Assembly (NCBI GenBank): GCA_900769645.1
Contig: CAAGHI010000063.1
Coordinates: 83,379-147,378 of the forward strand
DNA from: Candidatus Gastranaerophilales bacterium
Lineage (GTDB): Bacteria > Cyanobacteriota > Vampirovibrionia > Gastranaerophilales > Gastranaerophilaceae
DNA: 64,000 nucleotides
Reading direction: 5' to 3'
This document shows, piece by piece, positions 8,606 through 44,016 of this stretch. The notes below the pieces were generated by a model that had not been told where the DNA came from, did no database searches, and saw only the letters and a program-made list of their open reading frames with translations. Within the stretch, counting starts at the first letter, position 1; each line of letters starts with the position of its first letter. Both the position numbers and the translations under genes were made by a program.

Positions 8606-9085
8606 ATGAAAATTTTACCGATTAATAATTATAACGCTAACTATCAGTACAGCCAGATTAATAATGGCATGACGGCTCCTGTTTTTACTGCAAAGAAAAT
8701 TATTCCGACAAAAGAGCAACATAACGAGTTAAGAGTTTTTCTTCACCATATTTATGAGTATAAGAAGGGGTTGAGAAGCTTAATTTTGACTACAGAAAAG
8801 AAGTCTAATCAACCTTATATAACTCAAAAATTAGAGCGAGAAAAAATCCCGTATCTTATTACGCCGGCTGGTGAAAAGTCCATAAACGTGTTCTTTGGAA
8901 ACGAGGATTGCATAAAAGTTGTTTCGACATTTGATAAAAAGCTTAATAAATTGTCACCGGAAAAAGATTTTATGCTCGGAATTATGCTTGGCTATGACAA
9001 GATTTTGCAATGTAAGAGATATATGCAAAGGTTAGGGAAGGTGACTGCTCAGGCTGCTAAAAATATAAATGAAAAACTGTCTTGA
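8606..9085 (+). CDS. Hypothetical protein
   Basis: 159 aa ORF with a TTGACA-N17-TAACAT promoter upstream; no recognisable motif. Confidence 0.4.
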   Translation: MKILPINNYNANYQYSQINNGMTAPVFTAKKIIPTKEQHNELRVFLHHIYEYKKGLRSLILTTEKKSNQPYITQKLEREKIPYLITPAGEKSINVFFGNEDCIKVVSTFDKKLNKLSPEKDFMLGIMLGYDKILQCKRYMQRLGKVTAQAAKNINEKLS

Positions 9086-9110
9086 AAAGTTTCTGAAAAT
9101 GTGCTAAAAT
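9082..9110 (+). promoter_or_regulatory. sigma70-like promoter for pilin-like locus 2: -35 TTGAAA, 17 nt spacer, -10 TAAAAT, then GAG
   Basis: Same hexamers and spacing as locus 1. Confidence 0.55.
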
Positions 9111-9142
9111 GAGCATATCAGAATAGAAAAGGAGTCAAGATT

Positions 9143-9250
9143 ATGAGAAGAGATTGTTTTATGCAAGAATTGCTAAAAATGAAAAGCCACCTAATTTGTG
9201 GGGGTAAAGTGCTCGTCGGGGGGGGGGCAATCGTCACGAGGAACATGTAA
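9143..9250 (+). other. Leader sORF (MRRDCFMQELLKMKSHLICGGKVLVGGGAIVTRNM) reading through the G10 tract, out of frame with the pilin domain
   Basis: RBS AAAAGGAG 8 nt before ATG 9143; TAA at 9248-9250. Confidence 0.4.
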
Positions 9251-18322: not shown

Positions 18323-19531
18323 ATGGCAAGAGAAAAGTACGAACGTACCAAACCGCACGTTAACATCGGTACAATTGGCCACGTTGACCACGGTAAAACA
18401 ACATTGACAGCAGCTATTACAGCTGTATTGGCTGCACAAGGACAAGCTGCATTGAAAAAATTCGATGAAATCGATGCTGCTCCAGAGGAAAAAGCAAGAG
18501 GTATTACAATCTCTACTGCTCACGTAGAATACGAAACAGCTACTAGACACTATGCACACGTTGACTGCCCGGGCCACGCTGACTATGTTAAAAACATGAT
18601 TACAGGTGCTGCTCAAATGGACGGAGCTATCTTGGTAGTTGCTGCAACTGATGGTGCTATGCCTCAGACTCGTGAACACATCTTGTTGGCTCGTCAGGTT
18701 GGCGTTCCTAACTTGGTTGTATTCTTGAACAAATGTGATATGGTTGACGATCCTGAATTGTTGGAATTGGTTGAAATGGAAGTTAGAGAACTTCTTTCTT
18801 CATACGAATTCGACGGAGACAACATTCCATTTATCCACGGTTCTGCATTGAAAGCTTTGGAAGCTGCTCAAGCTAACCCTTCAATCGCTCGTGGTCAAGA
18901 TAAATGGGTTGATAAAATTTGGGAATTGATGGACGCTATCGATACTTACTTCCCAACTCCAGAACGTGATTTGGACAAACCATTCTTGATGCCAGTTGAA
19001 GACGTATTCTCAATCACTGGTCGTGGTACAGTTGCTACTGGCCGTGTTGAACGTGGTATCGTTAAAGTTGGTGACGAAGTTGAACTAGTTGGTCTAGGTG
19101 AAACTAAGAAAACAACTGTTACTGGTGTTGAAATGTTCAGAAAATCTCTTGACCAAGGTCAAGCTGGTGACAACATTGGTGCATTGCTTCGTGGCGTTGA
19201 CAAAACTGAAATCCAACGTGGTCAAGTTTTGGCAAAACCTGGTACAATTCACCCTCATACAAAATTCACTGCTAACGTTTACGTATTGACTAAAGAAGAA
19301 GGTGGACGTCACACTCCATTCTTCCCTGGTTACAGACCTCAGTTCTACATCAGAACAACTGACGTAACTGGTTCAATCAAATTTGACGGTCAAATGGTAA
19401 TGCCTGGTGATAACGTTGTAATGGAAGTTGAACTTATCGCTCCAGTTGCAATCGAAGAAGGTATGAGATTTGCAATCCGTGAAGGCGGCCACACAGTTGG
19501 TGCTGGTGTTGTTGACAAAATTATTGAGTAA
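18323..19531 (+). CDS. tuf: Elongation factor Tu
   Basis: [20 protein letters not shown] motifs; 402 aa; [17 protein letters not shown]-terminus. Confidence 0.97.
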
Positions 19532-19563
19532 TTCAATTTTTAAGACAGCATAAAATAATTGAA

Positions 19564-19596
19564 AAACGAGCTTGGGAACAGGCTCGTTTTTTTTAT
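19564..19596 (+). terminator. Rho-independent terminator after tuf (aaacgagc…gctcgttt, then T8)
   Basis: 8 bp stem followed by TTTTTTTT. Confidence 0.7.
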
Positions 19597-19712: not shown

Positions 19713-19741
19713 TAGACATATCCCAAAAACAGAGTTATAAT
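19713..19741 (+). promoter_or_regulatory. sigma70-like promoter for pilin-like locus 3: -35 TAGACA, 17 nt spacer, -10 TATAAT
   Basis: Consensus -10, near-consensus -35, 17 nt spacing. Confidence 0.5.
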
Positions 19742-19779
19742 AACACATGTATGCACACAAAAAAGAAAGAGAGCTCGAT

Positions 19780-19833
19780 ATGAAAAAATGTAATGAAATG
19801 TTTCGGGGGGGGGGCTCGGAGATACTAGATTAG
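19780..19833 (+). other. Leader sORF (MKKCNEMFRGGGSEILD) reading through the G10 tract, out of frame with the pilin domain
   Basis: Purine-rich RBS GAAAGAGAG before ATG 19780; TAG at 19831-19833. Confidence 0.4.
19805..19814 (+). repeat. Homopolymeric G10 tract, candidate phase-variation site
   Basis: Third G10 in the window, again 43 nt upstream of an A|FTLAEV motif. Confidence 0.8.
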
Positions 19834-19856
19834 CTGCTAAGAAATCTGCGTTTACA

Positions 19857-20888
19857 TTGGCAGAGGTTCTTATCACCCTTGGTATAATCGGTGTTGTTGC
19901 GGCGATTACATTGCCTGTTTTGTTGAGCAATGTTGATCAAAAGGTTAAGGCGGAACGCGTTACGAATATTAAACAAAAACTCAGCAAGGTTACTGACAAA
20001 ATGGCTGTGCAGAGTGGACTTATTGGGTATGACAGCACAGATGCGTTTGTAAAAGAAATGCAAAGACACATGAAAATCGCCAAAGTTTGTGATAACGCCC
20101 ATCTCGACGATTGTTGGCCTTCAAAAGAGGTTACTTTGGACGATGAAGGTAAATCTTGGGAGATTTCAAAAACAAAGACTGCCAAGACTTTGAAGGTGGC
20201 AAAAGCTGACGGAGATGACTGGTCAGATACAGTCGGAATTGTGACGGGTGATGGAGCAGCAATGATTTTGAGCTACAACAAAGGCTGTACATTCGACATT
20301 GATAAAGAAGGTTTGAAATCCGGCGATAGTAAGGGTTCAAATTCGAATTCTTTAAACTGCATTGCAGGAGTTTTTGATTGGAATGGCGGTAAAAAGCCGA
20401 ATAAGTTAGCAAAACTTGAAGGAAATTCAAATGGCGATGTTTTGATATTCGGAAAAGCAAGCGGTTTGGGTTCAGAATGTTCAATTGAGTTAGGCGGGAA
20501 ATGCCTTACAGCTCCATTCACTCCAAGCCCATTAACAAAAGCTGAATGCGAAGCAGAAAAAATATCCGGTTGCTTCTATGAACGAGACTACTGGGCTGGA
20601 GCTGTAAAACAATGTGGTGGAGTATCTAAAATGCCAACTTATGATGATTTAGCAAAACTAGCAACAGAACTCTACAAAGGTAACCCAAAAGTTGGGAAGA
20701 ATACTATATTTAATAGTCGAATATTTCAATTAGACACCTCAAAAGCCGCATCTCTGGGCTTTACCGGTTCGCCTTTCTATGTTTGGTCGGGTGAATCGCA
20801 ATGGACCCGTGGCTTCTATAAAGATGGCACGGGTTGGGACAACTACCACGGCGGCAGTACGATTCAGGCGGTTTGTGTCGGTGAATAG
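19857..20888 (+). CDS. Pilin-like protein with prepilin-type N-terminal domain (KKSA|FTLAEVLITLGIIGVVAAITLP), paralog 3. ATG 19780 is fused by a +1 G
   Basis: The pilin frame is open from 19797 with no ATG/GTG/TTG before the FTL codons; Cys-rich C-terminus with an NGGKKPNK motif. Confidence 0.6.
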   Translation: MAEVLITLGIIGVVAAITLPVLLSNVDQKVKAERVTNIKQKLSKVTDKMAVQSGLIGYDSTDAFVKEMQRHMKIAKVCDNAHLDDCWPSKEVTLDDEGKSWEISKTKTAKTLKVAKADGDDWSDTVGIVTGDGAAMILSYNKGCTFDIDKEGLKSGDSKGSNSNSLNCIAGVFDWNGGKKPNKLAKLEGNSNGDVLIFGKASGLGSECSIELGGKCLTAPFTPSPLTKAECEAEKISGCFYERDYWAGAVKQCGGVSKMPTYDDLAKLATELYKGNPKVGKNTIFNSRIFQLDTSKAASLGFTGSPFYVWSGESQWTRGFYKDGTGWDNYHGGSTIQAVCVGE

Positions 20889-38342: not shown

Positions 38343-38648
38343 TTACTTTGGCAAGTGCTTTTGCCAATCTGCGTCAAGAGCTTTGATAAAACGATGTGCA
38401 TCAATTACATCGTCATAATTTATTGGTTCCGGACCTTCTTGAACTTCCATTGGCTCGTAATCCTTTATATCAACGTTGTTTATACCTAAAAATGCGACGC
38501 CAAAGTCCTTGCCACAATGTTTGCAAGAAAGACCGACTACCGTAAGCCCTTCTTCCTCTCGCTTAATAGTTATTGAGTCTTCATCAAAGCCATTTTTACA
38601 ATGTGAACAGCATAGATTTGAGAATAATTTTTCGATTTTCTTTTTCAT
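38343..38648 (-). CDS. Small zinc-ribbon-like protein with two CxxC pairs
   Basis: CSHCKNGF…CKHCGKDF; 101 aa. Confidence 0.45.
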   Translation of the reverse strand: MKKKIEKLFSNLCCSHCKNGFDEDSITIKREEEGLTVVGLSCKHCGKDFGVAFLGINNVDIKDYEPMEVQEGPEPINYDDVIDAHRFIKALDADWQKHLPK

Positions 38649-39060: not shown

Positions 39061-39349
39061 ATAGTGAATATAGACTCCGGATCATAGTCCGGAGGTGCTA
39101 CGCACGTAGTCCTCTGTGACAACGTTGGTTCATGCTTCATACATTGGTGTAAAGCACTTACGCACGTAGTCCTCTGTGACAACATTGGTTCATACTTCAT
39201 ACATTGGTGTAAAGCTCTTATACGAACGTAGCCCTCAGTGATAAAGCAGCTAGGAAGTGAGGTAGCTAAGTGTGAGTCGTCATTCTGAAAGCTTAGAAAA
39301 TTATTTTGAACGATTAGTGAAAAATAAATTTTCTTGCTATTCAGAATCT
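39061..39349 (+). repeat. Composite family-1 repeat: module A, a 61-bp module-B unit tandemly repeated ~2.3 times (39098-39230), and module C (39279-39349)
   Basis: Two nearly identical consecutive 61-mers that differ at 3-4 positions. Confidence 0.7.
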
Positions 39350-39480: not shown

Positions 39481-40788
39481 TTATGCCAAAATGCCTTCAA
39501 TCGTTTCAATTGAACGTTTTGCCATTAGCTCTGCTTTGAGTTTTTTATTTTTACGCTCTTTTTTCGGAAGTTCTATTGGGTCTACAATTCCCCAATTTGA
39601 ATTTATCGGTTGGAATTTTTCGTGATTTTCATCGCTTATGTATTGTGTAAGTGCACCGAGAACTGTCTCTTTTGGAAGAGTTAAAAGTTTTTCATTATTC
39701 AATAATTTAGCCATGTTAATTCCTGCAAGCATGCCCGTTGCGATAGATTCTGTGTAACCTTCTGTTCCTGTAAGTTGCCCTGCAAAGAATAAATTTGCTC
39801 TTTCGCGTGATTGTAATGTCGGATTAAGCACTTTTGGTGAGTTTATAAATGTGTTTCTGTGCATTACGCCGTATCTGACTATGTTCACATTTTCAAGCCC
39901 CGGAATTGATTGTAGCAACTCTTTTTGAGCTCCCCATTTCAGATTTGTTTGGAAGCCTACAAGGTTGTAGAGAGTTTTGGCAGAATTGTCTTGGCGTAAT
40001 TGAACGACTGCGTAATTCTTTTCGCCTGTGCGTTTGTCGATTAGCCCAACCGGTTTCATAGGACCAAATCTGAGTGTATCAACTCCACGAGATGCCAAAA
40101 CTTCAATCGGTAAACAGCTTTCGAAAAATTTAGCGTTTTTTTCAAACTCTTTTAGTTCGATTTTTGGCGCATTAATCAGGATATTGTAGAAGTTTTCATA
40201 CTCTTCTTTGTTCATAGGACAATTGATGTATGAGGCTTCTCCCTTGTCGTAGCGACTTGCAAAGAAGGCTTTGTCAAAATTTATACTGTCTTTTTCAACG
40301 ATTGGAGCAATCGCATCAAAAAAGTGTAGGTGTTCGCTTTTCGTGAATTCTTTAATTGAATTTGCAAGACTTTCTGATGTCAAAGGTCCAGATGCCACAA
40401 TCGTGTAACCGTCAGGAATTTCAGTGATTTCTTCTTTTATGATATTGATATTTTTGTCGTTATTAATTTTATCTGTTACGGTTTGCGAAAATAATTCTCT
40501 GTCGATTGCCAAGGCGCTTCCGGCAGGAACAGCACATTCCCTTGCGATTTTGATAAGTTCTCCGCCCAAAAGTTCCATTTCTTTTTTCAAAAGTCCTGAT
40601 GCGTTAGAGCAATCTGCGGCTCCTAGGCTATTTGAGCAGACAAATTCTGCAAATTTTTCGGTTTTGTGAGCGCCGGTTGTTTTTTCAGGGCGCATTTCAT
40701 ATAAATTTACTTTAATTCCTCTTTTAGAAAGCTGTAAAGCAGCTTCTGAGCCTGCTAATCCGGCTCCGATTATGTTTACTGTATCCAT
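39481..40788 (-). CDS. trmFO: Methylenetetrahydrofolate--tRNA-(uracil-5-)-methyltransferase TrmFO
   Basis: NIIGAGLAGSEAA FAD-binding N-terminus; 435 aa. Confidence 0.85.
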   Translation of the reverse strand: MDTVNIIGAGLAGSEAALQLSKRGIKVNLYEMRPEKTTGAHKTEKFAEFVCSNSLGAADCSNASGLLKKEMELLGGELIKIARECAVPAGSALAIDRELFSQTVTDKINNDKNINIIKEEITEIPDGYTIVASGPLTSESLANSIKEFTKSEHLHFFDAIAPIVEKDSINFDKAFFASRYDKGEASYINCPMNKEEYENFYNILINAPKIELKEFEKNAKFFESCLPIEVLASRGVDTLRFGPMKPVGLIDKRTGEKNYAVVQLRQDNSAKTLYNLVGFQTNLKWGAQKELLQSIPGLENVNIVRYGVMHRNTFINSPKVLNPTLQSRERANLFFAGQLTGTEGYTESIATGMLAGINMAKLLNNEKLLTLPKETVLGALTQYISDENHEKFQPINSNWGIVDPIELPKKERKNKKLKAELMAKRSIETIEGILA

Positions 40789-43802: not shown

Positions 43803-43940
43803 GATACTCTCCTTAATGCAGATTATAGCATAAAGATAGAAAGATGTTGATTTGTTATATTTTCAGGAGAAAGTTTTAATAATAAATAGCTGAAAGTTTA
43901 ATAGATAAAAGTCTAATTTCTTTTTATTTTAATTATGTAA

Positions 43941-43947
43941 AGGGGGG
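43941..43947 (+). repeat. G7 homopolymer immediately upstream of the first recombinase's promoter
   Basis: GGGGGGG ~24 nt upstream of the extended -10 TGTATAAT (43973-43980). Confidence 0.6.
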
Positions 43948-44016
43948 GAAAATTTAGAGCAGCCGAATTTTTGTATAATATAAAAAAATTGTTAAAATTT
44001 ATTAAAGAGGGAAGAA

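Follow-up and report, generated by a model that had tools for sequence, protein, structure and literature searches.

We describe a gene for a prepilin-type protein, termed locus 3, in which a run of ten G residues (G10) within the leader-coding sequence determines the reading frame. It lies in a 64,000-nt stretch of Candidatus Gastranaerophilales bacterium (GCA_900769645.1, contig CAAGHI010000063.1, positions 83,379-147,378, forward strand; G+C content 34.8%), referred to here as the window. Gastranaerophilales are uncultured, non-photosynthetic relatives of Cyanobacteria that inhabit human and animal guts; to our knowledge, almost nothing is known of their dealings with host, phages or other microbes. 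We consider locus 3 to be a probable homopolymeric-tract contingency locus, a prepilin-type gene whose frame would be switched by slipped-strand mispairing, and assign this reading a probability of roughly 0.78. An earlier prediction, made from the letters of the window, had proposed just such a length-variable poly-G frameshift switch; it now draws support from variation of the tract between strains, from natural alleles that are in frame, and from the association of similar tracts with related genes throughout the order.

Three G10 runs are present in the window, at 174-183 (locus 1), 9218-9227 (locus 2) and 19805-19814 (locus 3). A run scan confirmed the original prediction that these are its only G runs of 8 or more; the next longest is a G7, and the window contains no C run of 6 or more. 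Overlapping matches to G8 number 9, against 0.16 expected from dinucleotide-preserving shuffles of the window. A six-frame motif search revealed exactly three pilin-like N-termini, at 392, 9261 and 19848, all on the + strand and each with one G10 upstream; all three runs thereby fall within 2.8% of the window (p = 2e-5). The tracts had also been described as sharing one position relative to the motif, which proved correct for loci 2 and 3 (33 nt from the tract end to the codon for Ala -1) and incorrect for locus 1 (208 nt). Judged by their reading frames, all three pilin-like genes are OFF at the tract lengths assembled in the window.

Anatomy of locus 3 and its predicted product

The features of locus 3 and its upstream neighbour are as follows.

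18323-19531: tuf, encoding EF-Tu (Pfam GTP_EFTU), upstream neighbour of locus 3
19561-19592, + strand: intrinsic terminator of tuf, a 14-pair stem followed by a T run
19713-19741, + strand: predicted sigma-70-like promoter TAGACA-N17-TATAAT, called by consensus match alone (11 of 12 positions)
19765-19773, + strand: purine-rich Shine-Dalgarno (SD)-like stretch GAAAGAGAG, 6 nt before ATG 19780; conserved in contigs L001-L006
19780-19833, + strand: frame of the primary start at G10, a dead-end open reading frame (ORF) of 18 codons, MKKCNEMFRGGGSEILD, with its stop at 19831-19833
19793-19795, + strand: second ATG, in another frame and lacking an SD; at G9 it enters the pilin frame, giving MKCFGGGLGDTRLAAKKSA followed by FTL
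19805-19814, + strand: frame-setting G10 homopolymer, 25 nt after ATG 19780 and 33 nt before AFTLAEV; encodes three leader Gly residues when in frame
19815-19850, + strand: remainder of the leader in the pilin frame, LGDTRLAAKKSA, its last residue being Ala -1 of the predicted prepilin-peptidase site; no start codon
19851-20888, + strand: mature pilin-like protein, starting FTLAEVLITLGIIGVVAAITLP, with E5 and a hydrophobic helix, then about 320 aa whose C-terminal domain is Cys-rich

The promoter, the purine-rich ribosome-binding stretch, ATG 19780 and the stop of the short ORF had all been predicted and were borne out, and the promoter sequence is identical across orthologous loci. Given the tuf terminator at 19561-19592, locus 3 would constitute a transcription unit of its own. 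From ATG 19780, translation ends after 17 codons at G10 and enters the pilin frame at G11. The pilin frame itself, as had been noticed, is closed by TGA 19794-19796 and then contains no ATG, GTG or TTG up to the Leu codon of FTL; the first candidate start, TTG 19857, would delete the cleavage site if used. Lacking any start codon within the pilin frame, locus 3 is predicted to be OFF at G10. Its ORF is nonetheless intact, running for 346 codons after the tract to a stop at 20886-20888.

At G11, the primary start would instead yield MKKCNEMFRGGGLGDTRLAAKKSA joined to FTLAEV, a leader with a net charge of +4 and KK at -4/-3. The basic leader with a Gly run that had been predicted for this length was accordingly found, at 24 aa and three Gly rather than 25 and four. 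At G9, the product from ATG 19793 begins MKCFGGGLGDT and is annotated in this form by gene callers in contigs L002 and L112 (homologue P0001).

Other roles for the tract were considered and set aside. With the tract about 65 nt past the -10 hexamer and within the coding region, an effect through promoter spacing was rejected; so was a G-quadruplex, because a single G run cannot fold into an intramolecular one. Folding of RNA from 19760-19900 gave no structure beyond that of shuffled sequences (z = 0.09), and for this reason a frameshift stimulator or riboswitch was also dropped. At the Rfam gathering threshold the window matched two tRNAs only, with no match at the three loci.

Assignment of the products to the type IV pilin and pseudopilin group (TIGR02532, PF07963) is based on profile matches and on the features of the N-terminus. 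The locus 3 protein exceeds the cut-offs of both TIGR02532 (20.8 bits versus 16.3) and PF07963 (22.0 bits versus 21.2). The proteins of loci 1 and 2 likewise exceed the TIGR02532 cut-off and are at or just above that of PF07963, except that locus 1 falls just below the latter (21.0 versus 21.2); both also match DUF6613, at 32.8 and 30.4 bits respectively (gathering threshold 24.3), a family not matched by the locus 3 protein. The mature N-terminus, FTL(A/V)EVLITLGIIGVVAA, has the F+1, the Glu +5 and a roughly 20-residue hydrophobic helix (LITLGIIGVVAAITLP) typical of this group, together with a small residue at -1 and, throughout the family, basic residues at -4 to -2. It departs from the group in that residue -1 is mostly Ala rather than Gly (Ala in the window, in 104 of 110 homologues and in 62 of 79 loci, with Gly in the remainder), and in leader length: the ON frame of locus 3 has a short basic leader (24 aa, +4), unlike locus 1 (88 aa) and many relatives, whose leaders of roughly 90-196 aa are mosaics of repeats. 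An AF2 model of the locus 3 protein had a mean pLDDT (predicted local distance difference test score) of 56.8 and was confident for residues 211-346 only, residues 1-210 being mostly below 50; the best Foldseek matches of this model in PDB, intimin and C-type-lectin domains, were not significant (E >= 0.37), and the C-terminal domain had no match in Pfam. Processing of the leader by a prepilin peptidase and exposure of the product at the cell surface are expectations from sequence features. In a Gastranaerophilus genome, pilA/B/C/D/T have been reported (PMC5877343).

Tract length in strains and distribution of the motif in the order

Orthologous DNA was retrieved by means of neighbouring housekeeping proteins (for locus 1, an HI_0983-like neighbour); the contigs with an identical EF-Tu derive from human gut metagenomes. 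At locus 3 the following tract states were found.

Window and at least 7 further contigs with an identical allele: G10, OFF
L002 and L112: G9, pilin frame continuous with the second ATG
L003/L094, 99.7% identical: G11, ATG 19780 reading into the pilin frame, which has a G>T nonsense change at codon 176
L004 and L006, 92% identical allele: G10+C, in-frame product of 378 aa
L001: G10+TAAC, in-frame product of 379 aa
L005: G9+TAAC, OFF

All independent assemblies of the locus have a poly-G tract at this site. The flanks of these length variants, from different samples, are otherwise 92-99.7% identical, with G9, G10 and G11 all occurring within 99.4-99.7% identity; G10 is supported by at least 8 assemblies, G9 by 2 and G11 by one genome, retrieved twice (L003/L094, both representing GCA_964317185.1, contig CAYCMX010000028.1), in which the nonsense change, about 530 nt into the gene, has caused it to be called as two pieces (187 + 191 aa). 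Both ON alleles (L001, L004, L006, P0003-P0029 and others) and OFF alleles (window, L005, L105-L111) occur with an otherwise intact ORF, the in-frame alleles encoding full-length products of 378-390 aa that carry the predicted leader. The original prediction had named variation in tract length as a check, and differences in length between assemblies were found at all three loci (G9, G10, G11, +C and +TAAC at locus 3; G10 and G11 at loci 1 and 2). A metagenome-wide DNA pattern scan with the locus 3 tract context returned only L103, which is the same as L001, and a chance match in a contig of 70% G+C (L102).

Loci 1 and 2 are organized in a similar manner.

87-115, + strand: locus 1 promoter-like TTGAAA-N17-TAAAAT, from sequence and alignment with locus 2
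147-227, + strand: locus 1 start ATG and its dead-end frame at G10, MQEDLRRVLGGGASVTGYVEIPQLGS, ending in a stop
174-183, + strand: locus 1 G10 tract; G11, in frame, in L104
184-1036, + strand: locus 1 long leader and pilin-like gene (AFTLAEV at 392; DUF6613), the pilin frame being open from the tract
9082-9110, + strand: locus 2 promoter-like TTGAAA-N17-TAAAAT, the same module as 87-115 of locus 1
9143-9250, + strand: locus 2 start ATG and its dead-end frame at G10, MRRDCFMQELLKMKSHLICGGKVLVGGGAIVTRNM, ending in a stop
9218-9227, + strand: locus 2 G10 tract; G11 in L098
9261-9917, + strand: locus 2 pilin-like gene from Ala -1 (AFTLVEV...), DUF6613 family

The G11 allele of locus 1 in L104, a contig of 20.6 kb with no other G or C run of 7 or more, has been annotated as a protein of 303 aa; its start, an in-frame ATG farther upstream (MKKKGRIMQEDLRRVLGGGG...), gives it an 88-aa leader. 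An internal ATG preceded by an SD is found in locus 1 of the window, at 368 and just before the motif; this codon is ACG in L104. Locus 2 joins its pilin frame at G9 or G12 and needs the loss of one G rather than a gain; its tract is G11 in L098 and G10 in L096 and L097. Short low-coverage contigs that end near the locus 2 tract were excluded from the evidence on length heterogeneity.

Several further observations pertain to these two loci. The locus 2 alleles of L096 (877-1190) and L097 (775-1190) encode the same mature protein but a leader that is longer by 315-417 nt in the interval from tract to AFTLAEV; the insertion contains no stop, leaving the pilin frame open through insertion and tract, and the relation to the start ATG shifts from needing -1 to needing +1. 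Loci 1 (87-183) and 2 (9082-9227) have a near-identical 5' module comprising TTGAAA-N17-TAAAAT with an upstream TG, an SD, and GTGCTCG..G10..CAAKCGTCACG, and past its tract locus 1 retains a leader of the locus 2 type (QASRGTWKFRS) in a different, now closed, frame. This shared module suggests that 5' switch modules have been exchanged or rearranged between paralogues. Flagellar genes adjoin locus 2. In L011, at about 570-618, the locus 2 promoter runs into an Illumina adapter, AGATCGGAAGAGCGTCGTGTAGG, which marks an artefact of assembly in this low-coverage contig from a public metagenome.

The hypothetical G11 product, used as a query, retrieved 2876 homologues, and leaders were surveyed in the representatives of the 120 best homologue clusters. 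About 50 of these 120 start with M-x(2-20)-GGG(G)-leader-AFTLAEV, as in P0003 (...MKKCNEVFRGGGLGDTRLAAKKSAFTLAEV) and P0004-P0011 (MKRC.(E/R)MFRGGGNLGD...); natural in-frame alleles thus encode the predicted leader, MKKCNEVFRGGGLGDTRLAAKKSA followed by FTLAEV, almost letter for letter. Ten of the 120 are calls truncated within the mature part (MAEVLITLG..., MPVLLSNV...), as is typical of OFF alleles, and many other homologues are called from an internal Met of a long leader. Genes of this family are systematically mis-annotated in metagenome-assembled genomes (MAGs), as truncated, split or N-terminally extended forms that awareness of the tract would correct. At least 554 pilin-like loci were matched in species-representative genomes, the titles of these relatives being nearly all Candidatus Gastranaerophilales, Gastranaerophilaceae or Melainabacteria MAGs from gut samples.

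In a survey of 80 such loci from many Gastranaerophilales species (L014-L093; 256 kb), 24 of 26 G or C runs of 8 or more were located within 600 nt upstream of a pilin motif, a zone that accounts for 17.7% of the surveyed DNA (p = 2e-16). Of the remaining two, the run in L062 shows the same layout of SD, ATG and tract at the edge of the locus. The association of such tracts with pilin-like leaders, named as a check in the original prediction, held for all three runs of the window and for 24 of 26 across the order. The tracts range from G8 to G13 and include five poly-C runs on the coding strand (four of C9-C10 and one of C20); an SD with an ATG stands no more than 120 nt upstream in 22 of 27, and the device precedes roughly a quarter of the sampled pilin-like genes of the order. 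Among tracts at least 100 nt away from the motif, the pilin frame runs uninterrupted to the tract in 13 of 18 cases, compared with 1 of 36 for the other frames (Fisher p = 1e-7), a bias implying that translation starts before the tract and reads through it. Leader similarity extends to both sides of the tract (MKRF.N.-GGGG-.L.L.PQ.F), with frames that disagree at the assembled length.

A G10 was also seen in L007 (1844-1853), a contig whose EF-Tu is identical to that of the window. It lies in the 5' part of the coding sequence for a protein that is not a pilin, has a single transmembrane helix and lacks a Pfam match (MVEAIGNNVKFTGIQPNSGVTSPV-GGG-NSVAS...); the run is one G short of the in-frame length. 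On the sequence of this example, the device is not strictly confined to pilins.

Proposed switching mechanism and competing explanations

In the scheme we favour, locus 3 would be transcribed from a promoter of its own that follows closely on the tuf terminator, and ribosomes would initiate at the SD-preceded ATG 19780 and translate eight codons before meeting the G run. Slipped-strand mispairing at replication would alter the length of the run and thereby the frame. At G11 (or G8), ATG 19780 would be fused to the pilin frame to produce the 24-aa basic leader, FTLAEV and the hydrophobic helix, together a class III signal; at G10, termination after 17 codons would leave the gene OFF; and at G9 the second, SD-less ATG 19793 would be joined, making weak expression possible. 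With several such loci, each cell lineage would express a different subset of pilin-like surface proteins. Slippage as the cause, its reversibility, and host immunity or phage as the selective agent are the parts of this scheme that we infer.

A number of findings weigh against it. The tract lengths are those of assembled consensus sequences, a limit that bears on both within-population heterogeneity and reversibility. The identical G10 allele of at least 7 further contigs was returned by a look-up able to return G10-type calls only, and the recurrence of G10 implies that the majority tract state is not changing from sample to sample. The sole G11 representative of the near-identical lineage carries the codon-176 nonsense change; that lineage may be losing the gene, or selection may act against its expression. 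Among about 22 coupled tracts (L014-L093 and the window), 14 need +1, 5 need -1 and 1-3 are in frame, a skew that a neutral three-state switch, with a uniform expectation of about 7 per state, does not predict; candidate causes are contraction bias with selection against expression, a bias of short-read assembly toward tracts one short, and RNA-polymerase slippage or -1 ribosomal rescue. At locus 1, the internal SD and ATG 368 could bypass the switch, and stops cut off 5 of 27 tracts from the pilin frame. Residue -1 is Ala instead of the canonical Gly, and Pseudomonas PilD accepts Ala at this position to a limited degree only. Ten large ORFs tested from 34-57 kb of the window included neither a prepilin peptidase nor pilus machinery; they proved to be glycosyltransferase, sugar-nucleotide, GlnA and GGDEF genes.

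Some of these findings would be accommodated by programmed recoding, in which an extra G enters some transcripts through RNA polymerase, or ribosomes shift by -1 on G GGG GGG, such that a gene fixed at one G short yields a set fraction of product. The 14 of about 22 coupled tracts are in precisely the state that a +1-nt transcript or a -1 ribosomal shift would rescue, the window allele keeps its G10 in many samples, and a G run permits perfect re-pairing of Gly-tRNA in the -1 frame. We nevertheless regard this explanation as improbable, since orthologues occupy all frame states (G9, G10, G11, +C and +TAAC) and many natural alleles are plainly in frame, five tracts need the opposite shift, and G GGG GGG, formally slippery as it is, has no stimulatory RNA structure downstream (z = 0.09). 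Recoding could contribute leaky expression on top of DNA slippage. It is less probable still that the tracts represent short-read homopolymer miscalls, or G10 pseudogenes, with no regulatory role. Random errors leave unexplained both the near-exclusive placement of tracts before pilin-like genes and the openness of long leaders in one frame; the tract recurs at the same site in all independent assemblies, with individual lengths reproduced; and an intact 346-codon ORF after the tract, 99.4-99.7% identical between strains in an AT-rich genome, argues against decay. These considerations are set against the low coverage of several contigs (4-9x), the difficulty that long G runs present to polymerases and sequencers, an undercalling bias that would give an excess of tracts one short and, with respect to decay, the nonsense mutation of L003.

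A similarly slight probability attaches to the view that the tract-bearing ORF is uncoupled from the pilin-like gene, being a separate regulatory leader or a recombined 5' relic, with the gene starting on its own farther downstream. The internal start of locus 1 in the window is what this view would expect, as are the stop-separated tracts, with their separate starts (L034, L042, L080), and the movable promoter-plus-tract module shared by loci 1 and 2. Yet L104, with ACG in place of the internal start, has locus 1 in frame from the upstream ATG, the open-frame statistic (13/18 versus 1/36) indicates that read-through is selected, and the locus 3 pilin frame has no ATG, GTG or TTG between the tract and the FTL codons. 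Uncoupled ORFs may occur at some loci; the sequence of locus 3 does not permit one there.

Leader repeats and comparison with known systems

The known leaders of type IVa and IVb pilins measure roughly 5-30 aa. Those of about 90-196 aa among the relatives of locus 3 are assembled from short interspersed repeats, including RHAELVSASH, SLAPRGRGLGRGG and ATHVAHCDNIGSY modules, and the leader of locus 1 is partly made of such modules. The window contains a tandem array at 39086-39290, in the intergenic space separating ORF 38343-38648 from ORF 39481-40788; its period is 60 nt and its copy number 2.3 (GGTGCTACGCACGTAGTCCTCTGTGACAACRTTGGTTCAT...), and after it comes GCAGCTAGGAAGTGAGGTAGCTAAG...GTCGTCATTCTGAAAGC. 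Modules of this array recur in translated form in pilin leaders: ATHVAHCDNIGSYLIRW in P0061, P0065 and P0069, and LGSEAAKQ in the locus 1 leader at about 215-245. These correspondences identify what is, by sequence, a short interspersed repeat family common to intergenic DNA and leaders. A separate 60-nt (20-aa) in-frame insertion, bearing the pseudo cleavage motif AFTLAEGATHVAHCDKYRRV, directly precedes the real AFTLAEV in L005 (4530-4590), L040, L041, L066, L092 and P0051, and so recurs in several species; it may reflect recombination at AFTLAE-coding DNA, or a small inserted element with the hairpin GCTACG-CA-CGTAGC. Repeat modules and conserved AFTLAE-coding DNA could also allow the exchange of 5' switch modules between loci.

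We tentatively extend the proposal for locus 3 to a clade-wide, family-specific contingency system, a broader claim in which we place distinctly less confidence. Many paralogues would carry 5' modules of promoter, SD, ATG and poly-G or poly-C fused to class III leaders of up to about 200 aa, built from repeats and kept open by selection, for a combinatorial ON/OFF display of pilus or pseudopilus subunits.

The switch proposed for locus 3 has counterparts in other bacteria. The pilC gene of Neisseria gonorrhoeae and N. meningitidis also has a poly-G tract in the region encoding its N-terminal export signal, specifies a type IV pilus-associated protein, and is turned ON and OFF by RecA-independent frameshifts (Jonsson et al. 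1991, cited in PMC5354566). PilC is, however, a Sec-exported tip adhesin present in 1-2 copies in a cultured proteobacterial pathogen, with switching shown experimentally; the genes considered here encode prepilin-type proteins of a large paralogous family. In Bifidobacterium breve UCC2003, likewise a gut commensal, sortase-dependent pili are governed by an intragenic G tract that is out of frame in the reference; productive replication slippage at the tract is required for pilus synthesis, and equivalent tracts occur across the genus (PMC9187656). Those are sortase-dependent Gram-positive pili with no class III signal and a tract outside the leader, and their heterogeneity was measured by maximum-depth sequencing (PMC9187656), whereas we compared assembled sequences. 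Campylobacter jejuni, with its poly-G/C contingency loci (PMC8355987, PMC3025981), resembles the present case in its AT-rich genome, in the rarity of G/C runs of about 8-13 outside surface-structure genes, and in intragenic tracts that set ON and OFF frames and vary in length among isolates; the targets there are mainly glycosyltransferases and genes for capsule or lipooligosaccharide and flagellar modification, with no pilin family and no long leaders.

Full-text searches found no literature that connects homopolymeric tracts or such phase variation with Melainabacteria, Vampirovibrionia or Gastranaerophilales, and a 2026 preprint on Gastranaerophilales mentions neither pili nor phase variation. 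The slipped-strand switch is thus of a known type; what is new is the phylum, the target (a large family with class III signal peptides) and leaders that are sometimes unusually long and repeat-built. Hypermutable switches on a large pilin-like family would point to strong fluctuating selection at the cell surface, for example by IgA or pilus-dependent phages. The states of such switches can be read from existing metagenome reads without culture and thereby offer a way to follow surface variation in a gut lineage that has not been cultured.

The G7 at 43942-43948, next in length after the three tracts of the window, is intergenic; it lies about 70 nt upstream of ATG 44017 and beside a 15-nt tandem repeat at 43885-43917.

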